NCBI GenBank assembly: GCA_963654645.1 | Contig: CAVKCU010000324.1 | Coordinates: 1 to 33,741 of the forward strand | DNA: 33,741 nt | Direction of reading: 5' to 3' | Source: Clostridiales bacterium | Lineage (GTDB): Bacteria; Bacillota; Clostridia; Oscillospirales; Ruminococcaceae | Shown: piece after piece, positions 60 to 9,984 of the stretch | Layout: every line of letters starts with the position of its first letter | Numbering within the stretch: position 1 is the first letter of the stretch | Position numbers and translations under genes: made by a program | The notes under the pieces: generated by a model | Seen by the model: the letters and a program-made list of their open reading frames with translations, nothing else | What the model was told of the DNA's origin: nothing | The model's database searches: none

Positions 60-99
60 AAAGGGGAGAGCACCTTCACGGTTGCTCTCCCCCTTTTTT
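60..99. terminator. Bidirectional intrinsic terminator closing the phage-like cluster
   Basis: aaaggggagagca-ccttcacggt-tgctctcccc followed by a T run; lies between two convergent stop codons. Confidence 0.85.
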
Positions 100-1364
100 C
101 AGCTGTTCAGCTGCTGCATGATCTTCCTGACCTCGCTGCTGGAGTATCCCTCCTTGAGCAGCTGGGTGCGGATGGCCGTATCACTGCGGCCCTGACTGCG
201 CATCCTCGCCGCGCTGTACGGCACGGTGCCGCCGCTGGAAACGCCGCTTTTGCCCACCTTCAGGCCGGTGTCACCCGTCAGGCTGCCGCGCTTCGCCGCT
301 GCATCGGCGCTGGCTTTTTCGGCAGTCCGGCTGGCCTTTTCCTGCTTGGCTGCCCACTGGCTCTTGCTCAGGTCCAGCCGCTCTGCCGCAAGGGCATTGC
401 TGACCTGCTGCTGGCGGAGTTTGTCCTGATATTCCTGCTGCGCCTGCTCGTTTTTGTACTGCTGCTGTGCCAGCTCATCCTGCCGCAGCTGCTCCTGCAT
501 TTTCTGCTTCCACGCCGTGTCGGCCCGTTCGGCTTCATAGGCGCGGTTGCCTGCATAGATGTTGTATCCGGTGTTCAGCAGGCTGCCTGCCATGCTGCCC
601 AGACCCGTGGTGCCGGTAATGGCCAGCTGGGCCGCATCGCCCAGAAGGCCCAGCACGGTCATCACATTGTTGAATCCCTGCTGGCGGCGAGCCGCCTCCT
701 GCTGTTCCTGTGCCGCGTAGTAACCGTACAGGCTGTCCAACTGGCCCAGATAATCCTGATAGCGCCCGTAATCCTGGGTGTAAGCCGTGTTGTAGGCATT
801 GCCCTTTTGTTCCAGCTGGGTGTAGTAATCCGCCAGCTCCCGCTCATACTTTTGCTGGGCATTCTGCTCCTGCCCGTTCAGCTGGTCGATCTGCTCCACC
901 AAGGCATCGCCGCCGCTCTGGTAGGTATCCAGCGCCAGCCGGTACAGCGTGGGGATGGCCTCGCTCAGTGCACCGATCTGCTGCTGGTATGCCTGCCGGG
1001 CCGCACTGGCCGCGTAGCTGGAACCATAGCCGCCGGTCAGGGCAGCGGCCTGCGCCGCCGCGTCGGCACTGGCGTTCTGGGCATTCTGGGTGTACAACTG
1101 GGCGTACTGGCGGTACAGTGGGTCGGCACCATAGCTGTAACTGAATTCCTTCCGGTCCAGCAGATCCTCCATCAGGCCGTCAATGCGGCCCTGATAGGCG
1201 CTCTCGTAATCGCCGGGGCGGTTGGCCTGCCACTGCTTCAGGTCGCTGGCCGCGTCCGTCACCTCCTGCGAGGGCCGGTACTCTGCCGAAGCCAGCGCTT
1301 TTTCCACATCCTGCCGGTTTTTCAGCCCGCCCGTGGTGTACTCCTGCTTCTTTTTCTCGCTCAT
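99..1364 (-). CDS. Putative virion internal/DNA-ejection protein, 421 aa
   Basis: Q/A/Y-rich predicted helical protein with a Gly-rich hydrophobic segment (VMTVLGLLGDAAQLAITGTTGLGSMAG). Last gene after the nozzle-like gene. RBS AAGGAGGAG; ATGA overlap with the upstream ORF. Function inferred from position and composition. Confidence 0.55.
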   Translation of the reverse strand: MSEKKKQEYTTGGLKNRQDVEKALASAEYRPSQEVTDAASDLKQWQANRPGDYESAYQGRIDGLMEDLLDRKEFSYSYGADPLYRQYAQLYTQNAQNASADAAAQAAALTGGYGSSYAASAARQAYQQQIGALSEAIPTLYRLALDTYQSGGDALVEQIDQLNGQEQNAQQKYERELADYYTQLEQKGNAYNTAYTQDYGRYQDYLGQLDSLYGYYAAQEQQEAARRQQGFNNVMTVLGLLGDAAQLAITGTTGLGSMAGSLLNTGYNIYAGNRAYEAERADTAWKQKMQEQLRQDELAQQQYKNEQAQQEYQDKLRQQQVSNALAAERLDLSKSQWAAKQEKASRTAEKASADAAAKRGSLTGDTGLKVGKSGVSSGGTVPYSAARMRSQGRSDTAIRTQLLKEGYSSSEVRKIMQQLNS

Positions 1365-1564
1365 GTCTCCTCCTTTCCCAAACTGCCGGAAAGCCTGCCC
1401 CGCAGCTCCTCCGAGAAATTCTCGGTGTCCAGATTGCAGAGCACATATTGCAATTGCTCCTGCATCTGGTACAGATAATTCCGCAGGGCCCGGGCATCCT
1501 CCGGGTCCATATTCTCACTCAGCCTGGGCAGGCCGATCTTGCCCAGGCCCGCAATGCTTGCCAT
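1361..1564 (-). CDS. Small phage-like hypothetical protein, 67 aa
   Basis: Tightly packed between neighbours (3 nt gap upstream, ATGA overlap downstream), GGAGGG RBS. Confidence 0.75.
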   Translation of the reverse strand: MASIAGLGKIGLPRLSENMDPEDARALRNYLYQMQEQLQYVLCNLDTENFSEELRGRLSGSLGKEET

Positions 1565-1567
1565 AGT

Positions 1568-3439
1568 TCATCCCTCCAGTTCCATCCAGTTTCCCTTTGC
1601 CCCGCTGAAGGTCTTGGCCAGGCTCCGCAGGGTGATCTGCCCATAGCCCCACAGCCGCAGCCGGAGCGAGGCGCACCGCCGGGGCACAAGGTGCAGATCA
1701 CAATTGCGGCGCGGGCCCTCCACCGTCAGGGCGGCAGCGGTCTCCCAGGGGCCGCCGTCATAGCTCACTTCCACAGTCACCCGGCTCCTGCAGGCGGCAT
1801 CCAGCCGCAGCGTCAGCCGGGAGAGGTACCGCTCCTCGGGGCTGTCCAGCCCCAGATCTCCGGTGGTCAGGGCAAACTCCACGCCCTGTTCCGTTCCCTC
1901 GCTTCTCTGCCCTGCCGTTTCCCGGCTGGGGTCAGCGGCCCAGAGCGCCCGGCCATCCCAGAGATAGAGCTGCCCGCCGGTGCTGGCCATCTCAAAGGAG
2001 CAGACATCCTCCTCGTGCCAGAGGCCCCGCTCGGTATCATAGACCAGCAGCCGCACCTCGTTTTCCCGGCTGACATGCAGATAATACCGGCCATCCAGCG
2101 CGCCGCCCACGGCCTGCTTCACATTGGCAAGCCGCCCGGCATCCAGCGCCGCCGACACCTTGGCCGGGATGCTGCCGTCCCACGCCATCACGCCGTCGGG
2201 CGAGAGATAGTACAGCGTCTCGTTCAGCACGCAGAGACTGCGGGCCGCGTTTCTGGCCACACCCCGGCAGCGCAGGGAGCTGAGCTGGAAATCCGAGGGC
2301 TTGGAGCCGTAGAGCTTGTGCAGGGTGTTTTCCTTGAAGAACAGCGCATAGCCCATGCAGGTGGCTGCGCCGGTAAAGGGGCCGTCGCTGCCCACGGTCA
2401 CGGCATAGCTGTCTGCCGCGATGCCCCGGTAGGAGAACCAGTTGGTGGGGTCGCCCAGCTTGCAGGCGTAGATGACATTCTCGCTGCTGGAACAGCCCCA
2501 CACCCGGTTGTCGCACTCGGTCAGGTACTCAAGGTCGGGCACCCGGCGCTCCACCTTCACACCCTCCGCCGGGAAATACTCTTCCCGCTGTGTGCCGTCC
2601 ATGCTCACCCAGACAGCACTGCTGCCATTGTGGACAAGCCTGCCGTAAAAGTGTTCGCCGCCCGGGTCAGCCCGCAGGCGCAGGGTGGTCTCGGTCACAC
2701 CGTACACGATGCGGTCGCCGTCCAGCCCGGCCCACTGGCCTGCCTGTTCAGCCCCCGTACCGGTCAGGGTCACGGTATCCCACACCCGGAACTCCGCCCC
2801 GATGCCCTCAGCGGTCACAAGGCAGTAGTCCAGGGGGATCACCGTCCAGTTGCCCGAAGCCTCGCTGTACACCTCCAGCGTGTTCTCTGCGGAATAGGGC
2901 TTGTCCGGCTCGTTCAGCTTCAGAAACAGCTGGCCGTCCTGCGGGTGTTCCGGCTCCTTCGTGCCCTTGTCCTTCACCTCGTAGGTATTCCCCGAAGCAT
3001 CACAGGGCGCAAAGCTCACGCTCAGGCTTCCCGCCTCCCAGGCAGCACCCAGCGGGGCCGCGCTGCCGTCGGCCGTATCGAACGCCACCTTGTCCGGGAA
3101 GATCAGGATCTTTGTTCCGATGCCCACCATCGTCTTGCGGCTGTCGGCCACAGCATTTTTCACGGTGACGGGCTGGGCCGGGGCATCGTCCGGGGTATAA
3201 ACCAGATCCCGCCCGCAGACGGTCAGCAGACCGTTCAGGTGGTACATCCCGTTCAGCCCGGCCAGCTCCTGCAGCCTGCGGCGGGGCAGCCGGGTGCTCA
3301 GGGCCGGGAAATCCCGGGCCGAGAAATTCATCCCCGCGCTGTACTCAGCCTCGGTGCAGCCGTAGGTCTCGTTCAGACCGCCAAAGGCCCGCAGCAGATC
3401 CCGGGTGTTCTTCACACCGGTCCGATTTGTCAGAAGCAT
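1568..3439 (-). CDS. Putative podovirus tail nozzle / packaged-DNA stabilisation protein (P22 gp10/T7 gp12-like role), 623 aa
   Basis: N-terminal FGGLN motif, beta-rich repeats (NRVWG, GDPTNW, LYYLSPDGV, LLVYD...W), position after the adaptor, RBS AAGGGAGG. Family assigned by pattern and synteny only. Confidence 0.65.
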   Translation of the reverse strand: MLLTNRTGVKNTRDLLRAFGGLNETYGCTEAEYSAGMNFSARDFPALSTRLPRRRLQELAGLNGMYHLNGLLTVCGRDLVYTPDDAPAQPVTVKNAVADSRKTMVGIGTKILIFPDKVAFDTADGSAAPLGAAWEAGSLSVSFAPCDASGNTYEVKDKGTKEPEHPQDGQLFLKLNEPDKPYSAENTLEVYSEASGNWTVIPLDYCLVTAEGIGAEFRVWDTVTLTGTGAEQAGQWAGLDGDRIVYGVTETTLRLRADPGGEHFYGRLVHNGSSAVWVSMDGTQREEYFPAEGVKVERRVPDLEYLTECDNRVWGCSSSENVIYACKLGDPTNWFSYRGIAADSYAVTVGSDGPFTGAATCMGYALFFKENTLHKLYGSKPSDFQLSSLRCRGVARNAARSLCVLNETLYYLSPDGVMAWDGSIPAKVSAALDAGRLANVKQAVGGALDGRYYLHVSRENEVRLLVYDTERGLWHEEDVCSFEMASTGGQLYLWDGRALWAADPSRETAGQRSEGTEQGVEFALTTGDLGLDSPEERYLSRLTLRLDAACRSRVTVEVSYDGGPWETAAALTVEGPRRNCDLHLVPRRCASLRLRLWGYGQITLRSLAKTFSGAKGNWMELEG

Positions 3440-3454
3440 CCACTTTCCTCCCTT

Positions 3455-3838
3455 TCACCACCGCCACTGCGCACCGCGCTTCGGCTTTGCACGCCGCCGC
3501 AGCCAGGCGCTCAGCTCGGCCAGAATGCTGTTATACCGGGCCTGCTCCCCGGCGTAACGTTCCGTCTCGCCCAGGGCAGCATCCAGCTTTGCGCAGAGGT
3601 AATGCGGGTAGAGCGCATCAAAAGGCACGGGGACCAGCAGCTCTACAGCATCGTCCAGACCTCCCTCCGCAGGCCAGGCAAGGTCTGCCCCCACCCCGGC
3701 CCGCAGCCCGCAGGCGGCAAACAGCAGGGCCCGCAGCATTCCGTCCTCCTCACAGAGCCAGCGCTGCCGGGTGCGGCTGTCCACCTTGCAGCCCGGCCGC
3801 AGTTCCTCGGCCCGTTCCAGAGCCTGTCCCACTGTCAT
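3455..3838 (-). CDS. Putative head-tail adaptor protein, 127 aa
   Basis: Start reassigned to MTVGQAL (ATG 3838, RBS GAGGGG). Helical protein with LLVPVPFDALYPHYL, located between capsid and nozzle genes. Confidence 0.6.
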   Translation of the reverse strand: MTVGQALERAEELRPGCKVDSRTRQRWLCEEDGMLRALLFAACGLRAGVGADLAWPAEGGLDDAVELLVPVPFDALYPHYLCAKLDAALGETERYAGEQARYNSILAELSAWLRRRAKPKRGAQWRW

Positions 3839-3842
3839 GCTC

Positions 3843-4055
3843 TCACCCCTCGATCCTCTCGGCGGCGGCAATGCGGGCAGCGGTGCGCTCATCCTGCACC
3901 TGGCTGTGCTCCAGCACCTCTGCCACCTCGGGCGGCACTTCCACCTCCACGCCCCGGCGGATCTTATAGCTCACGCCGTTCACGCTCACAAACAGGTCAC
4001 CTTTGTACCGGCTGTTGTCCTTGAACAGCCGGATGCGTACGTTTTTCTTGTCCAT
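3843..4055 (-). CDS. Small phage protein following the major capsid gene, 70 aa
   Basis: RBS GAAAGGA; FVSVNG...IRRGVEVEVPPEVAEVL pattern resembles small capsid-adjacent proteins. Confidence 0.7.
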   Translation of the reverse strand: MDKKNVRIRLFKDNSRYKGDLFVSVNGVSYKIRRGVEVEVPPEVAEVLEHSQVQDERTAARIAAAERIEG

Positions 4056-4144
4056 TTTTCATCCTTTCTGCCCTCTGTCGCAGGGGCACTGCCTTTTCCG
4101 CCTCGCCTGGTTTCGTTCATCCAGCAGGGCTTGCCCGGTTTGCC

Positions 4145-4190
4145 AAGGGCTCCCCTACTAGGGGAGCTGGCGCGAAGCGCCTGAGAGGTT
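4145..4190 (+). repeat. REP-like palindromic unit (single copy)
   Basis: ggctcccc-tacta-ggggagctg-gcgcgaagcgc-ctgagagg; ends at the capsid stop codon. Confidence 0.85.
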
Positions 4191-5188
4191 TAATTCGCAC
4201 TCGCATTCTCTGAGTAGCTGGATACACTCTCAATGCGCACCATGTACTGCTCCACCAGACGCTCGGCGGCGCGCATTCCCTTCCAGCCCACGGAAGCGCG
4301 CTGGTTCAGCGGGTCGTCGCCATAGCCCAGCTGCTTGACGATGTGTTCCAGGCCGCCGCCCTCCAGCTCGGTCACACCGTAGGCATGGGCACCCAGCACC
4401 AGCGTGCCGAACACGGCCAGACCGCTGGGGCAGGTGGTGTCCTTCCAGATCTTGGCCTCGCTGGTCTCCACAAAGCGGATATTGCCCAGCTTGCCGATCT
4501 CGCCGCGGTACATGGTCTCAGGGTCGGCATACTTGTGCGCCTCAATGAATTCCCTGCAGGTCTTCAGGTCATAGGCGGCATAGGGGTGGATGATGGCAAT
4601 GTAGCTGTCACCGATGGGGTCCGCGTTCATGGCACCCAGCTGCGCCGCCGCCCGGAAGAACAGCTTCGGGGTCAGGGTGCAGGTCTTGTCCAGCTCCTTG
4701 CGGCTCTTCACCTCCGTTTCGGTGCCGTCTGCATTCTGCTTGGGGGCATACAGCACATTGGTGCCGCCCGCCAGCACATCACGGGTGATGCTGTCCATGG
4801 TGCGGCCCGCCTGGCTTGCCAGCACACGGGTGGCCTGCACCACGTTGTTGTCGATGGCGGTCATCTGCAGCACGTCAGTCAGCGGGGTCCAGCCGCCATA
4901 CTGGTGCAGGTCGCTGGTGATGGTGGTCACGTTCAGGGTCTGGCCGTTGGGGGTCACACCCTCGGTCAGCGGGGTGGTGGCCTTGGGCAGGCTGTCGTAC
5001 TTGCGGAACTCGATGGTCTTGCCGCCGTTCTGGGGCACAGGATAGTAATCCGCAAACTGGTCATGCACCAGCCGGGGCTCTGCCTGGTCGATGAGGCGCT
5101 TCTCGTAGAAGGTCTTCATCTCCGGGGTCATGGTGGTGGTGGAGTTCAGGGGAGTTTCGGCAAACAGCTGAATGTTGAAGTTGTTCAT
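4190..5188 (-). CDS. Major capsid protein, N4-gp56 family, ~332 aa
   Basis: Motifs LTEGVTP, QYG, GEIG..GNIRFVET, DPLNQRASVGWK. Start reassigned to MNNFNIQLFAE (ATG 5188, AAAGGA RBS at 8 nt). The N-terminus carries a Prp-type IQLF/A motif. Confidence 0.9.
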   Translation of the reverse strand: MNNFNIQLFAETPLNSTTTMTPEMKTFYEKRLIDQAEPRLVHDQFADYYPVPQNGGKTIEFRKYDSLPKATTPLTEGVTPNGQTLNVTTITSDLHQYGGWTPLTDVLQMTAIDNNVVQATRVLASQAGRTMDSITRDVLAGGTNVLYAPKQNADGTETEVKSRKELDKTCTLTPKLFFRAAAQLGAMNADPIGDSYIAIIHPYAAYDLKTCREFIEAHKYADPETMYRGEIGKLGNIRFVETSEAKIWKDTTCPSGLAVFGTLVLGAHAYGVTELEGGGLEHIVKQLGYGDDPLNQRASVGWKGMRAAERLVEQYMVRIESVSSYSENASAN

Positions 5189-5216
5189 AGTCATTATCCT
5201 TTCTTTCATTGATTTC

Positions 5217-5280
5217 AAGCTCCCCCTTCGGGGGAGCTCCGCAAGGCGCTGGCAAAGCCAGACCGAAGCGGTGAGAGGGT
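5217..5280 (+). repeat. REP-like palindromic unit (single copy)
   Basis: agctcccc-cttcg-ggggagctc...ctggcaaagccag...gtgagaggg. Confidence 0.8.
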
Positions 5281-5286
5281 TTTCCC

Positions 5287-6234
5287 TCAAAAACTGATCT
5301 TTGCACCATGGAGCGCCTGACGCTCCAGCGCTTCCCGCTGGCTGCGGGTCATCCGGTTCACGTCCGCACCGGTCACGGCGGCGCTGCCGGGGTGGGTGCC
5401 GTTTTCAGCAGGGCGTGCCCCGCGCTGGCGGATGCGCTCCACCACGCCCTGCTCCACGGTGCGGGCAGTCTGGCGCATGGCATCCCCGTAGTGGGCCAGC
5501 CGGTAGGCATCCAGCATCCGCATCCCGGGCAGCTGCATCAGGCGGCGCATCTCGGGGTCTGCCAGCTCCTTTTGCAGGGAAAACTCCGGCACTGCCCGGC
5601 GCATCATGGCCTCCTCGGCAGCCCAGCGCCGGTGCAGGGCATCCACAGCCTGGCTTCCCGGGAAACGTTTTGGAAGCGCAGGGCGGGGCGGTTCCTGCCC
5701 TTCTTCCGCCTTGACCGGTTCGGTCTCTTTCACCTCCTTCTCCCCCTCCGGGGCGGTCGTCTCCTGCTTTGCGTCCGCTTTCTCACCGGGCTTCAGGGTA
5801 CCCGATGCCACAGCCTGCTGCTCCTGGGCCGCGCTCAGGGCAGGGGCAGCCGCTTCGCCGCCGTCAGCAAACAGCTGCAGATCCATCATCTCCTGCTTGC
5901 CCCGGGCACTCCGGTCAGCAAAGTGGACATTGTCCGGGTAGCGCTCGGCCAGCAGGGCAAAGCCCGCCTTGGCCAGCTCAAAGGCCCCCTCGACCCATGC
6001 GGTACAGGGCCGGGCGGCAGTCACCGTCAGGCGGGGGCCATCGGGCTCGTCAAAAGCATCGCTGTGGGCGTTTTCCTCGCCCGCCAGCAGGCTGACCAGT
6101 GCCTGCATCAGGGTGCTGACACCGGCACACACGATATCCTGCCCTGCCGGGGCATAGCCTGCATGGCCCGCCGCCTCCAGACGCATGGCCGGGCCGTAAG
6201 GGCCGTCCAATTCCGTATAATTCACTTTGATCAT
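5287..6234 (-). CDS. Prp-family cysteine protease fused to a putative capsid scaffold protein, 315 aa
   Basis: Start MIKVNY (ATG 6234, RBS AAGGAGG). Prp signature GHAGYAPAGQDIVCAGVSTL and LAERYPDNV, then MMDLQLFADG (5866-5889) and an acidic low-complexity/helical scaffold-like domain directly upstream of the MCP. Confidence 0.85.
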   Translation of the reverse strand: MIKVNYTELDGPYGPAMRLEAAGHAGYAPAGQDIVCAGVSTLMQALVSLLAGEENAHSDAFDEPDGPRLTVTAARPCTAWVEGAFELAKAGFALLAERYPDNVHFADRSARGKQEMMDLQLFADGGEAAAPALSAAQEQQAVASGTLKPGEKADAKQETTAPEGEKEVKETEPVKAEEGQEPPRPALPKRFPGSQAVDALHRRWAAEEAMMRRAVPEFSLQKELADPEMRRLMQLPGMRMLDAYRLAHYGDAMRQTARTVEQGVVERIRQRGARPAENGTHPGSAAVTGADVNRMTRSQREALERQALHGAKISF

Positions 6235-6255
6235 TTCTGCCTCCTTCTCATGTAA

Positions 6256-6365
6256 AACCTCTCCGTCACCTGCGGTGCCGCCTCCCCTCATAGGGGAGGC
6301 AAGCCAGCAGCAGCGTGAACTTGGCTCTCCTGTTAGGAGAGCTGGCGCAAAGTGCCGGAGAGGTT
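6256..6365. repeat. Inverted pair of REP-like units overlapping the portal 3' end
   Basis: aacctctccgtc...cctcccctcataggggagg (6256-6300) and ggctctcctgttaggagagctg...ggagaggtt (6323-6365). Confidence 0.85.
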
Positions 6366-8069
6366 CTTCGCCAATGCTCTTGTGCTCAGATTTTCCTCCG
6401 CGCCGCTCAATTTCTCGTTGAACCGCGCGATCTGCATCTGGGCCGCCGTCAGCTTCTGTGCCAGCGTGCCGTTCTGCCGCACCCTCTGGCGCACTTTTTC
6501 GATGCCCTCAAAGTCCATCATCTCCAGTGCCGCCAGGGCCGCGTCGGCATTCTGGGGTGCAAAGAAACCCAGCTGGTAGCACTCCTTCGCCGTTTCATTC
6601 TGGGAAAGCCGGCTGAAGGTGGATTTTTTCTCAGCGCTCACCACGATATCAAACACCGGTTCCCGGCTTCCCAGCTCCACGCCGCCCATCAACCCCATGG
6701 GGCGGGCACGCAGCGCTGTCCCGGAAAAGGGCACGAACTCTCTGCCTCCGGCAGGCCCGATGACACGGAACACCCGCTCCTCATCGTAAAACTGCCGCAT
6801 CAGGTCAATGATGAGGTAGCACTCCCTTGCAAAGGCCCGGTAGGCACTTTTGAGCATATCGCGGGAGAGCTTGCTGCCCGCCTCCTGCAGGGCCGCAATG
6901 GCACTTGCCGCCGTCACACCGCCTGCGGTGCCGCCCTGGGTCATATCCCGGTTTCCGCTGATCTCCTTCAGCTCCTCAATGCGGCTGTTGCGGTAGCTCA
7001 GGCTGTTCCCCTGCAAACCGGCGGTCTGCAACGGGCGGAAACTCTCGTCTCCCAGCCGCCCGGCCACATGGACGATGTCCCGGCTGAGATCCGCCAGTTC
7101 CTCCTCGTTCACGCCCGCCGTGTCGCTGAGCACATACCGCTGCTTGGATGCCAGCAGGACATTTTCATCCATGGCATGGTTCATCCGGTCGATGGCGGTC
7201 TGGCATTCCTTCATCACATCGATATAGCCAAAGCCCGCCGGGCTGTCCTCTTCCATAAACAGCGGGTCAAACACGAAGGGATATTTCCCGTGGTCGTAAA
7301 AGCCCCGCCCGGCAAGTGCCGGGTCGTTCTCGCTGGCGTAGAGCACCACACCGTTGCAGAACTTGCAGTAGTGGAGCAGGGTGCGTCCGGCCTCGTCCGG
7401 CTTTTTGTAGTACCAGTCCACCACCACGCTTTTTTCGGTGGTGTCCAGCCCGCCGTCGTGGAGAAAACGAGGCACATCCAGCACACTGGCGCTGTGGCCC
7501 TTCAGCTGGGGCCAGCGGTTTTCCAGCTGTTTTGTGTTCTCCATGCTCAGGGAGAAAAAGTGGGGCGAGGCCTGGATATCCGCCACGCCCGGCTCCCAGT
7601 AGAGCATGAGCAGATTCATGGGCCGGATGGCGATCTCTCCCACGCCGCCCCGGGCCTCCGGGTCCCAGAACACGCCCTTGACCCCGGTGCCCTGCTTGAG
7701 CTTGCGCCACCAGGTGTCGCTGTACACCTGTTCATAGTCTGCCTGCTCCAGCACCACCGGCAGGATGCTGGAAAGCACCTGTGCGGTCTGCGCATCGTCT
7801 GCCGCCCGGGGCAGAACATTGGGGGCTGGGTAATTGTCCATGGCATCGGCGTGCTTGTTGGCAATGCTGTTGAACAGCCACCCACTGGCAGGCTGGGGCT
7901 TGCCCTCCATCATGGGGTTCTGGTAGTTCTTCCAGTGTCCCATCCGGAACCACAGCTCGTTGTCCACAATGCGTTTGTCCAGCGCGGCCTTTCCGGCCTT
8001 GTATTTCTGTAAAATGGCCGTGGCTTCGGCCACCTGCTCTGTACCGATCATGTCCGTAATATTTTCCAA
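6333..8069 (-). CDS. Portal protein (podovirus/P22-like), ~578 aa
   Basis: Lies between TerL and the protease/scaffold gene, size ~580 aa, YPFV...GFGY and TAASAIAALQEAG segments. Probable TTG start at 8069 behind AAGGAGG. Confidence 0.85.
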   Translation of the reverse strand: MENITDMIGTEQVAEATAILQKYKAGKAALDKRIVDNELWFRMGHWKNYQNPMMEGKPQPASGWLFNSIANKHADAMDNYPAPNVLPRAADDAQTAQVLSSILPVVLEQADYEQVYSDTWWRKLKQGTGVKGVFWDPEARGGVGEIAIRPMNLLMLYWEPGVADIQASPHFFSLSMENTKQLENRWPQLKGHSASVLDVPRFLHDGGLDTTEKSVVVDWYYKKPDEAGRTLLHYCKFCNGVVLYASENDPALAGRGFYDHGKYPFVFDPLFMEEDSPAGFGYIDVMKECQTAIDRMNHAMDENVLLASKQRYVLSDTAGVNEEELADLSRDIVHVAGRLGDESFRPLQTAGLQGNSLSYRNSRIEELKEISGNRDMTQGGTAGGVTAASAIAALQEAGSKLSRDMLKSAYRAFARECYLIIDLMRQFYDEERVFRVIGPAGGREFVPFSGTALRARPMGLMGGVELGSREPVFDIVVSAEKKSTFSRLSQNETAKECYQLGFFAPQNADAALAALEMMDFEGIEKVRQRVRQNGTLAQKLTAAQMQIARFNEKLSGAEENLSTRALAKNLSGTLRQLS

Positions 8070-8112
8070 GTTTTCCTCCTTGCTGCCTCTCAGGCAGGTT
8101 TCGTTTTTGTCC

Positions 8113-8245
8113 AACCTCTCCGTCTTTGCTTCGCAAATCCACCTCCCCTAGTAGGGGAGGCCTTGGCAGTCCCCGCAAAGTTCCCGGTTTCGCCAGAGGC
8201 TCCCCTACTAGGGGAGCTGTCGAGCGTATGCGAGACTGAGAGGTT
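8113..8245. repeat. Inverted pair of REP-like units between terL and portal
   Basis: aacctctccgtc...ccacctcccctagtaggggagg and ggctcccctactaggggagctg...ctgagaggtt. Confidence 0.9.
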
Positions 8246-8269
8246 GTACAGAGCAGAGCCTTTCCATAG

Positions 8270-9703
8270 CTACACCCTGTAAAATCTCGCCCTCCGGTGC
8301 AGTTCCAGCGGGTCGTCCCCCACCGGAGGCTGCACAGTATGCCGGGGCGGGGAAATGGGATTTTCCATCAGCACATAGCGGCACTCGTCATAGATATGGT
8401 CCTCCTGCCGGGTGTCGATGTCCTCTACATTGCTCTCGTCATAGACCAGGTTCGGGAGGGTGCGGATGAAGTGCCTGCAGGTGCTGAACACCTGAAACAT
8501 GGGCCGCCCCTCCCCATCGAACGCCAGCCGGTAGTGGAACTGCATCTTCCCCGCCAGGCGGGTGTGGTCACCGGGGACCCAGTGGAGAAAATGGGGGCCC
8601 CGCTCCATCATGGCGGCAATGCTCTCGCCCCGGCTCTCATCAAAGATGGCAGGGTCAGCCACCCCCAGAATGGTGCGGCCCTTGAGCATCGGGTCGTTCT
8701 GCTCTGCCTCCCGGATCCGCTTTGCCTGCTCCACCGGATCGATGCGCAGGCCCTCGTTGGGGCGGCCCGTGCAGCCGTACAGCTCCTTGATGCGGTAAAG
8801 CCTGCCCTCCTCATCCGCCGCGTACCACCCCACCGAGAACGGCTTCGAGAAACCGAAATCGTACCCCCGGTAGATCTTCCAGTGTCTGGGGATGGCAAAG
8901 GGCGCAATGACATGGGTCCAGCGCTGGTCCTGATAATGCCCCGGGTCGTTCCGCCACTCGGTGAACACCTGCCCCGAAAAGCTGTCCCAGCTGCCATAGA
9001 GCAGGGCCTGCTTTTCCGCTTCGGGCAGGCTTGCCAGACTGGCAAGGTAGTCCGGGTCATTTTCCAGCAGGGCGGGGTTGTCGAACACGCTGGACGGGAT
9101 AAACACCCTTGCCCGCTCCAGCACCTTCTCGGTTCCGTCCGGCATCCGCACTGGGAACTGCTCCACAATGGGGGTGCCGGGCGGGGCAGGCGTGATGAAC
9201 CGTGCTTTCACCCAGCCGTGCCCCACACCGCCGGGATTGGTAGTGGCCCGCAGGTAGACCCGGGTGCCCGGGCCGGTAGGGCGGTTGCGGCTCATCATAT
9301 AGCTGTACTCTTCCCACTCGAAATGGGTCAGCTCATCGAACCCGATGAAGTCGAAGGCCTTGCCCTGATAATTTGTGCGATCCTTGGTGTACTGCATGGA
9401 ACCAAAGTAGATCTTGGCCCCGCTGGGGAACACCCACACATGGCTGGTGGCGTTGTACTGCGCCGTAGGAAAAGCCCGCTTGTAGTAGGCCATGCTCTTG
9501 TCCACCAGATCACTGAGCTGGGGGTAGGTCTTGCGCAGGATGAGCCCCCGATAGTGGGGGATGTGCACCTGCCGCAGGGCCTCGATCACCAGCGCGTCAC
9601 TCTTGCCGCCGCCTGCCGCGCCCCCGTACAGGGCTTCCGGTTCCGGGCGGCGCATGAACTCCGCCTGCCGGGGCTGGGGCCGCCATACGATCTCTGCATT
9701 CAT
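8270..9703 (-). CDS. terL: Terminase large subunit, 477 aa
   Basis: Walker A YGGAAGGGKS, Walker B FIGFDE, motif ATTNPGGVGHGW, nuclease motifs GYDFG and DHIYDECRY. Start MNAEIVW (ATG 9703, GGAGG RBS, ATGA overlap). Confidence 0.95.
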   Translation of the reverse strand: MNAEIVWRPQPRQAEFMRRPEPEALYGGAAGGGKSDALVIEALRQVHIPHYRGLILRKTYPQLSDLVDKSMAYYKRAFPTAQYNATSHVWVFPSGAKIYFGSMQYTKDRTNYQGKAFDFIGFDELTHFEWEEYSYMMSRNRPTGPGTRVYLRATTNPGGVGHGWVKARFITPAPPGTPIVEQFPVRMPDGTEKVLERARVFIPSSVFDNPALLENDPDYLASLASLPEAEKQALLYGSWDSFSGQVFTEWRNDPGHYQDQRWTHVIAPFAIPRHWKIYRGYDFGFSKPFSVGWYAADEEGRLYRIKELYGCTGRPNEGLRIDPVEQAKRIREAEQNDPMLKGRTILGVADPAIFDESRGESIAAMMERGPHFLHWVPGDHTRLAGKMQFHYRLAFDGEGRPMFQVFSTCRHFIRTLPNLVYDESNVEDIDTRQEDHIYDECRYVLMENPISPPRHTVQPPVGDDPLELHRRARFYRV

Positions 9704-9984
9704 ACGTCCTCCACGGCTGGCAGAAGCACCACGCCGCACGCCCGGGCCTCGGCATCCGCGCCCTGATCGTTCAGGGTCTTGGCCACCGCGGCCAGATCCT
9801 TCAGCACCGCCGTAGCCTCCTTGAGCCCCTTCATCAGGGCGGGGTCAGAGCCATCGCCACGCTGGACCTTCTGCCGGACGTTCAGTTCCTTGACCTCCTG
9901 CGCCAGCATAGTGCTCAAGGTGTCGGTGGCCTTGTGCAGGCTGACAAGGCTCTTGTCCCTGCCCGGCTGTTTTGCTTGCGCCAT
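9700..9984 (-). CDS. Putative terminase small subunit, 94 aa
   Basis: First gene of the cluster, ATGA-coupled to terL. Two predicted helices plus a C-terminal GVVLLPAV strand. Confidence 0.65.
   Translation of the reverse strand: MAQAKQPGRDKSLVSLHKATDTLSTMLAQEVKELNVRQKVQRGDGSDPALMKGLKEATAVLKDLAAVAKTLNDQGADAEARACGVVLLPAVEDV

Follow-up and report, generated by a model that had tools for sequence, protein, structure and literature searches.

Why would a phage-like head operon carry, in one reading frame, a protease of the family named for ribosomal processing and a scaffold-like domain? The question is posed by a gene on the reverse strand of contig C324 (CAVKCU010000324.1), a 33,741-nucleotide piece of the Clostridiales assembly GCA_963654645.1 (1.98 Mb, 79% complete) that was analysed whole and is called the window below. 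The gene is the fourth of ten open reading frames (ORFs) whose order is identical to that of operon I (RCH50852-RCH50844) of FpGTA, a gene transfer agent (GTA) of Faecalibacterium described by Borodovich et al. (Nat Commun 2026, PMC12946183). Our answer, which we regard as probable from comparative sequence analysis, is that the gene encodes a self-releasing polyprotein of head-maturation protease and scaffold, cutting both its own linker and the leader of the capsid protein encoded next door. The features on which the argument turns are as follows (SaPrp, Staphylococcus aureus Prp; aa, amino acids).

5287..6234, minus strand: Prp protease-scaffold fusion gene, 315 aa, ORF 4 of FpGTA operon I (ORF, Pfam, PHROG)
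5914..6234, minus strand: Prp (C108, PF04327) domain, aa 1-107 (Pfam, alignment, AlphaFold model)
6163-6165, 6136-6138 and 6127-6129, minus strand: residues H24, D33 and C36, respectively, of the His-Cys dyad with its Gly, Asp and Ser helpers (alignment to SaPrp)
5869..5913, minus strand: 15-residue linker RSARGKQEMMDLQLF (translation)
5866..5883, minus strand: Prp-type site DLQLF/A in the linker, predicted cut F122/A123 (motif, context ...KQEMMDLQLF/ADGG)
5290..5868, minus strand: scaffold-like domain, 193 aa after the predicted cut (PHROG 13908, rough helix prediction)
5159..5188, minus strand: 9-residue capsid leader MNNFNIQLF/A, predicted Prp site F9/A10 (motif, reads on as AETPLNS)
4190..5188, minus strand: major capsid protein, 332 aa (PHROG 1357, E 5e-85; Pfam Phage_capsid_4)

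The fused frame and its conservation

The frame runs through all 315 codons without interruption behind a strong upstream ribosome-binding site (RBS; AAGGAGG). Pfam Peptidase_Prp (PF04327) matches residues 1-103 (GHAGYAPAGQDIVCAGVS) with 48.3 bits against a cut-off of 27, and PHROG 13908, a family of unknown function, matches residues 195-315. These concordant matches bear out the first-pass annotation, which had read a Prp domain, a DLQLF/A motif and a scaffold-like domain from one ORF, and the capsid matches do the same for its reading of the next gene as starting with MNNFNIQLF/A. Residues G23, H24, A25, G31, D33, C36 and S40 align with SaPrp G21, H22, A23, G29, D31, C34 and S38, and SaPrp mutants of G21, H22, D31, C34 and S38 are inactive (PMC9405229). 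G23, H24, D33 and C36 are invariant in all 50 aligned Prp domains of elements and hosts. An AlphaFold model of residues 1-133 (mean pLDDT 87.9) has the Prp topology, with elements in the order E, E, H, E, E, H, E, and its best Foldseek matches are the SaPrp-peptide complexes 7JVS and 7KLD (E 3e-7 and 5e-7). Fold, catalytic residues and F/A sites are shared with host Prp (MEROPS C108, clan CR; S. aureus structures 4PEO, 7JVS and 7KLD). The ribosomal enzyme of hosts is encoded by a stand-alone gene between rplU and rpmA, alongside an extended ribosomal protein L27, whereas the fusion gene lies in a head operon; by its sequence and position, the enzyme belongs to the Prp family but is not the host ribosomal Prp.

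The fusion is not a sequencing error. Contigs from three independent runs (X1, 5235-6500; X3, 5249-6277; X18, 4110-6201) span the junction without a frameshift, the sole indel in the ORF across them being an in-frame 6-nucleotide insertion at 5690; this comparison is of assembled contigs, not raw reads, includes a fourth run (X20) without coverage of the junction and does not allow expression level to be inferred. Nor are orthologs consistently split: 56 of 60 orthologous loci are fused, the other four being truncated where a contig ends, and no split locus was found (38 of 42 loci from a viral collection and 18 of 18 from genomes are fused, as found with a protein query that favours close relatives). 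The 90% clusters hold hundreds to thousands of proteins of 308-317 aa. A family search found Prp in 21 of 24 genomes of the genus, 18 with it in long frames and three in short frames only; in these three, prp and scaffold are separate genes of the same head module (L068-L070), and the motif lies at the beginning of the scaffold or close to it. The 150 best representatives from a balanced profile comprise 96 of stand-alone length and 54 longer ones, of which 44 have the motif after the domain; many of the longer representatives are truncated or misassembled copies. A search for annotated phage genomes with the full fusion met it in unannotated faecal contigs only.

Predicted cleavage sites and the proposed processing

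Six-frame translation of the assembly (3.96 million codon positions) yields the pattern [DN][LI]Q[LMFR]FA four times, and all four occurrences are the linker and capsid leader of the window module and of a second operon copy on contig C137; a looser five-residue form occurs 24 times. In a closed genome (G013), two of five matches to the DNA pattern are the linker and capsid sites and three fall on the antisense strand of other genes. All 32 distinct linker contexts have Leu at P4, Gln at P3, Phe at P1 and Ala at P1', with P8-P10 variable, and the Gln, Phe and Ala of the capsid leader are invariant in 30 of 30. The known sites in L27 and in phage 80alpha (PMC9405229, Tables 1 and 2) fit both. 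Because the catalytic Cys and His and the P1 and P1' residues are invariant, these patterns suggest selection for cutting. At four loci (L040, L041, L058 and L085), an insertion of ~47 aa gives the linker a second LQxFA site.

All Firmicutes have been stated to have prp and the L27 extension (PMC12324487), to which Faecalibacterium is, judged by its genomes, an exception. L27 starts MAHKKG in 33 of the 34 loci surveyed (from ~50 genus matches), with the rplU stop 17-20 nucleotides upstream in 32, and the same number, 33 of 34, have no prp gene between rplU and rpmA. The 34th locus (L067, G001:C33), in which rplU and rpmA are joined in frame and the L27 N-terminus is lost, most likely reflects a misjoin in the assembly and was excluded. 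Outside the genus, 25 loci were read: 19 combine a long L27 with a prp gene lying between rplU and rpmA, and in the other six, from genomes of the family (L158, L159, L162, L168, L169 and L171), L27 is short and prp is missing from that position. This suggests either repeated loss of the extension system or a loss that extends to a wider clade. In five of five closed genomes of the genus, Prp occurs in long fused frames only, one copy being in a prophage. A targeted literature search found no paper on the loss of Prp or of the L27 extension in Faecalibacterium; Wall 2015 may list L27 exceptions.

S. aureus Prp acts on L27 and on the scaffold (gp46) and capsid (gp47) of phage 80alpha (PMC9405229, PMC5744158). 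Because its host has no chromosomal prp, the FpGTA element could not borrow the host enzyme as 80alpha does. The element Prp would be the only one in the cell, with the linker and capsid sites as its only evident substrates, and most likely serves particle assembly alone, since the host has lost the family's usual ribosomal job. We propose that Prp domains dimerise and that a dimer cuts the linker of another chain at F122/A123. Such cleavage would most likely occur in trans, because the SaPrp peptide is bound at the dimer interface (PMC9405229) and because a fused relative (P0224) has 12 residues between the last Prp strand motif and P1. The cut would free a 193-aa scaffold with the new N-terminus ADGGEAA, and Prp would trim the nine-residue capsid leader during or after procapsid assembly, leaving AETPLNS as the new capsid N-terminus. 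The fusion would deliver the protease to the procapsid and couple the amount of protease to that of scaffold. A polyprotein that cuts itself and matures the capsid had been proposed in the first-pass annotation; the conserved fusion, the Prp residues and the invariant motif uphold the proposal, in which the cleavage itself is our reading of the sequences.

In a predicted complex, two Prp domains with capsid residues 1-35 score 0.60, compared with 0.01 for the best of three controls. Of 157 solved pairs, 116 reached the mark applied to such scores, as did 2 of 215 mismatched pairs; among those reaching it, only 18 solved pairs and both mismatches score 0.60 or less. Runs agree on at least 60% of contacts, with a partner pLDDT of at least 44. 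The prediction lends weak support to recognition of the capsid leader by a Prp dimer and may reflect likeness to the solved complexes 7JVS and 7KLD.

The particle table of PMC12946183 lists RCH50850.1, which sits between the portal (RCH50851) and the capsid (RCH50849), as 'ribosomal-processing cysteine protease Prp' with function 'Unknown'. Coverage is given there as 52.6%, with 14 unique peptides; the spectra number 103, compared with 1226 for the capsid. With RCH50850.1 linked to the fusion gene by gene order and name, an ortholog of the fusion protein is made and co-purifies with FpGTA particles. The scaffold-like domain consists of a low-confidence arm rich in Ala, Glu and Pro, followed by helices (a single-sequence fold of the whole protein, pLDDT 50, served for rough helix positions only).

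Alternatives and points against

Free scaffold may have a second source, an idea we rate as possible but doubtful. An AGGAG adjoins the first internal ATG (0 nucleotides, with 3 to the second) and had been read as a possible relic of two ancestral genes. Its position was correct, and two-gene ancestry holds in outline, given that split relatives exist, but the AGGAG is not conserved: Glu as GAG stands at its place in 2 of 32 distinct contexts. Conservation is seen instead at the first Met (30 of 32) and, ~10 nucleotides upstream of it, in a purine-rich pair of Arg and Gly codons. A start at this Met116 (5887-5889) would yield the bulk of the scaffold separately, with a 7-residue MMDLQLF leader trimmed by Prp, besides the full-length fusion; such a nested gene is compatible with the self-releasing polyprotein and alters the source of the free scaffold. 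Consistent with it, Met at P7 is far commoner in the linker contexts than in capsid leaders (3 of 30), and computed anti-Shine-Dalgarno pairing reaches -5.0 kcal/mol or lower in 35 of 39 distinct DNA contexts, against 16% of 1490 internal ATGs in neighbouring genes (-5.0 kcal/mol in the window; -4.7 at the capsid's own start). The Gly codon at P11 is GGA in 14 of 39 against a background of ~9%, and herpesviruses make both a fusion and a stand-alone scaffold (PMC11565193). However, the contexts share ancestry, so these counts overstate the case, and the window site, with a spacing of ~10 nucleotides, is middling. Met is absent from P7 in 17 of 44 long motif-bearing representatives, and several fused prophage lineages have no Met nearby. 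At P12, the use of Arg codons hardly departs from background (CGG in 23 of 33), and we rejected it as proof of an internal RBS; nothing above chance was found for an internal promoter or terminator. In fused relatives such as P0224, P0235, P0328 and P0331, proteolysis would be the only way to free the scaffold because no Met lies near the site.

Several points weigh against the polyprotein reading itself. Cleavage at both sites is inferred from sequence, and in the AlphaFold monomer the linker is an undocked helix (pLDDT ~57-61) in which cleavage in cis is not seen. The FpGTA proteomics of PMC12946183 comes without a peptide list. Comparison of six orthologs indicates that 52.6% coverage is attainable from the scaffold part alone (~60% of the length), although not from the Prp part alone; the published figure therefore shows neither the cut nor the Prp half. 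No Pfam scaffold family matches the fusion protein, and the label 'scaffold' rests on gene position, composition, low-confidence helices and the label used in the paper. L27 was not found in the window's own assembly, and what is said of the host rests on congeners. Finally, 80alpha mutants with uncleavable scaffold and capsid are viable (PMC5744158) and, by analogy, cleavage may be dispensable in FpGTA.

The 80alpha result also favours an alternative that we consider improbable, in which the motif serves chiefly for binding, the fusion functions without being cut or with dispensable cutting, and the Prp domain is a chaperone or dimeriser for scaffold and capsid: in that phage, the N-terminal sequence of the scaffold is needed and its cleavage is not (PMC5744158). 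Against this stands the invariance of the catalytic Cys and His and of P1 and P1', a sign of selection for cutting.

Much less credible is that the GTA-borne Prp also processes host L27, possibly in place of a host enzyme. The first-pass annotation had raised cross-talk with L27 processing, and the element enzyme is indeed the sole Prp in the closed genomes apart from the prophage copy. However, short L27 and the lack of an adjoining prp in 33 of 34 genus loci contradict the idea: an unextended Faecalibacterium L27 leaves the enzyme nothing to remove and cross-talk no substrate. Element-borne Prps, moreover, form a clade apart from host Prps (support 99/98 in the Prp tree). That two genes only seem fused through misassembly or a frameshift error, for which the fragmented metagenome assembly and the existence of split relatives could be cited, we discount almost entirely given the 56 fused and zero split loci, the three other runs in frame and the large clusters of 308-317-aa proteins.

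Relatives, ancestry and significance

The operon to which the fusion gene belongs comprises ten ORFs at 99-9984: terS, terL, a P22-like portal, the fusion gene, the capsid and five virion genes. Its remaining members are as follows.

9700..9984, minus strand: putative small terminase (position and conservation, without a family match; PMC12946183)
8270..9739, minus strand: large terminase (Pfam, PHROG)
6333..8114, minus strand: P22-like portal (Pfam, PHROG)
99..4055, minus strand: five downstream FpGTA I virion genes of 70, 145, 623, 67 and 421 aa (PHROG, synteny)

The 623-aa gene is the tail nozzle in the table of PMC12946183. A host M16 peptidase gene lies directly upstream of the operon, and the 3' side is the contig end; the ORF list and Pfam and PHROG searches of the window revealed no integrase or replication gene in the ten-ORF operon. 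FpGTA operon I is described as 10.5 kb with ten ORFs, its particles as ~40 nm with ~9 kb of random host DNA, and packaging of random host DNA has been demonstrated for ATCC 27766 (PMC12946183). The window shares with it the order terS-terL-portal-fusion gene-capsid-tail and the lack of integrase and replication genes. The locus in F. hattorii APC922/41-1 (L048), a genome used in that study, is syntenic (90% identity in terL, 88% in the portal and 90% in the capsid), and the block is present in named Faecalibacterium genomes, where it often adjoins the M16 peptidase too. Judged by gene content and order, the window element is the published operon FpGTA I and not a prophage. The second copy in the assembly, on a short contig (G000:C137:1-4900; fusion 64%, capsid 91%, DNA 71-89% identical), is probably from a co-binned congener and not a duplication. 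Dispersed hairpin repeats lie between operon genes, after the capsid (4073-4192), the fusion gene (5215-5280) and the portal (6270-6400); each gives 12-24 BLAST matches within the assembly and is covered at very high depth by RNA runs, and they may tune scaffold against capsid expression.

Longer fusions of 460-480 aa occur in prophages with integrases and MuF-type genes of 3,200-3,600 aa (flanks read for four of six, L071-L074). Two prophages related to the GTA (L087:9416-19132 and L089:7928-18757) encode MuF-C (and PBECR5) proteins of 3,239 and 3,610 aa, which are absent from the GTA operon. The mature scaffold measures 186-203 aa in most GTA copies, 235-242 aa in those with the doubled motif and 330-378 aa in prophages, the GTA form being without a central block of ~140 residues found in prophage scaffolds. 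Split forms of the module were found at L068-L070, L080 and L183-L186. Scaffold trees give GTA and prophage fusions one origin, with moderate to weak support (94/89; 78/73 with more rows), whereas in the capsid tree split elements from three genomes of the genus form the sister group of the GTA, between GTA and prophage forms; recombination or repeated fusion may account for the two topologies. The Prp tree is poorly resolved. On this comparative basis, the fusion is probably older than the GTA: it occurs with a longer scaffold in temperate Faecalibacterium prophages, and in deeper relatives prp and scaffold remain two genes.

Beyond the genus, the capsid was found in 14 of 200 family genomes, with a split module in four, a fused one in one (L187) and no Prp match in nine; the capsid leader is present in 5 of 5 relatives with Prp and in 0 of 9 without a Prp match, a comparison spanning two or three clades only. 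The fused case (L187, L199, L200; G109:C3) is a compact GTA-like module in another genus, located between host genes, with a holin and an M15 peptidase. Its Prp-scaffold fusion is nested among relatives without Prp, its host keeps prp and a long L27, and the fusion looks separate in origin. Three split modules (L068/L094 in G017, L069/L095 in G002 and L183/L197 in G188) adjoin the same host genes, for a 4Fe-4S protein and an oligopeptide-binding protein, and that in G017 still has a holin and an endolysin attached. Because the three share this location, the split elements may be an older, still split, single-locus form of the domesticated element. At another locus beside the M16 peptidase (L047:10890-17109), terminase, portal and fusion are of GTA type, and the capsid (77%, grouping with prophages) and downstream genes are of prophage type; this is likely a GTA-prophage recombinant.

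Proteases and scaffolds are nested or fused in lambda C/Nu3, Mu I/Z and P2 O, and the maturation proteases of herpesviruses, lambda, Mu and P2 are serine proteases of other clans. Herpesvirus UL26/UL26.5 is a protease-scaffold fusion (PMC11565193), and lambda C is a protease and Nu3 a scaffold (PMC3224144). The architecture of the FpGTA protein is like that of these fusions, with an N-terminal protease, a C-terminal scaffold, release by self-cleavage and sometimes a nested start. What sets it apart from them is its protease, a Prp cysteine protease of 107 aa, and a released tag that mimics the L27 leader. Phage Cp-1 encodes a clan CR cysteine protease that trims the capsid N-terminus (PMC9405229); there, as for stand-alone phage Prps, the protease has a separate gene, whereas that of FpGTA is fused to the scaffold. 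Compared with host Prp and 80alpha, the FpGTA enzyme is encoded by the element and covalently joined to its substrate, the site is internal rather than N-terminal, and host L27 has no extension. By analogy, the fusion would work like both the 80alpha Prp system and a herpes-type protease-scaffold.

The words 'protease' and 'Prp' are absent from the main text of PMC12946183 in a term search, and the parts of that source consulted do not describe the fusion, either site or the host's loss of Prp and the L27 extension. Targeted literature searches found no Prp-scaffold fusion. The ingredients are known singly; their combination, with Prp covalently joined to a substrate in a host devoid of the L27 system, was not found in those searches. 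A broader picture, which we put forward with considerable reserve, is that FpGTA is a tamed member of a living family of short-tailed temperate phages of Faecalibacterium. The fused Prp would be its private, self-releasing maturation system, possibly with a nested start, and the sole Prp of a host free of L27 processing; a scaffold deletion of ~140 residues would set the 40-nm, 9-kb head, and GTA and resident prophages, which have the tag in common, could process or redirect each other's heads.

No gene transfer agent of the human gut had been described before FpGTA, and the present analysis offers a proposed function and exact cut sites for a particle protein listed as unknown in PMC12946183. 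It would add the Prp clan to the proteases fused to scaffolds. The database name 'ribosomal-processing' is misleading here, as Faecalibacterium has neither the L27 extension nor a chromosomal prp, which suggests that Prp-directed antibiotics would spare the Faecalibacterium ribosome. The pair of short and long scaffolds, finally, provides a direct handle on how the head size of a GTA is set.

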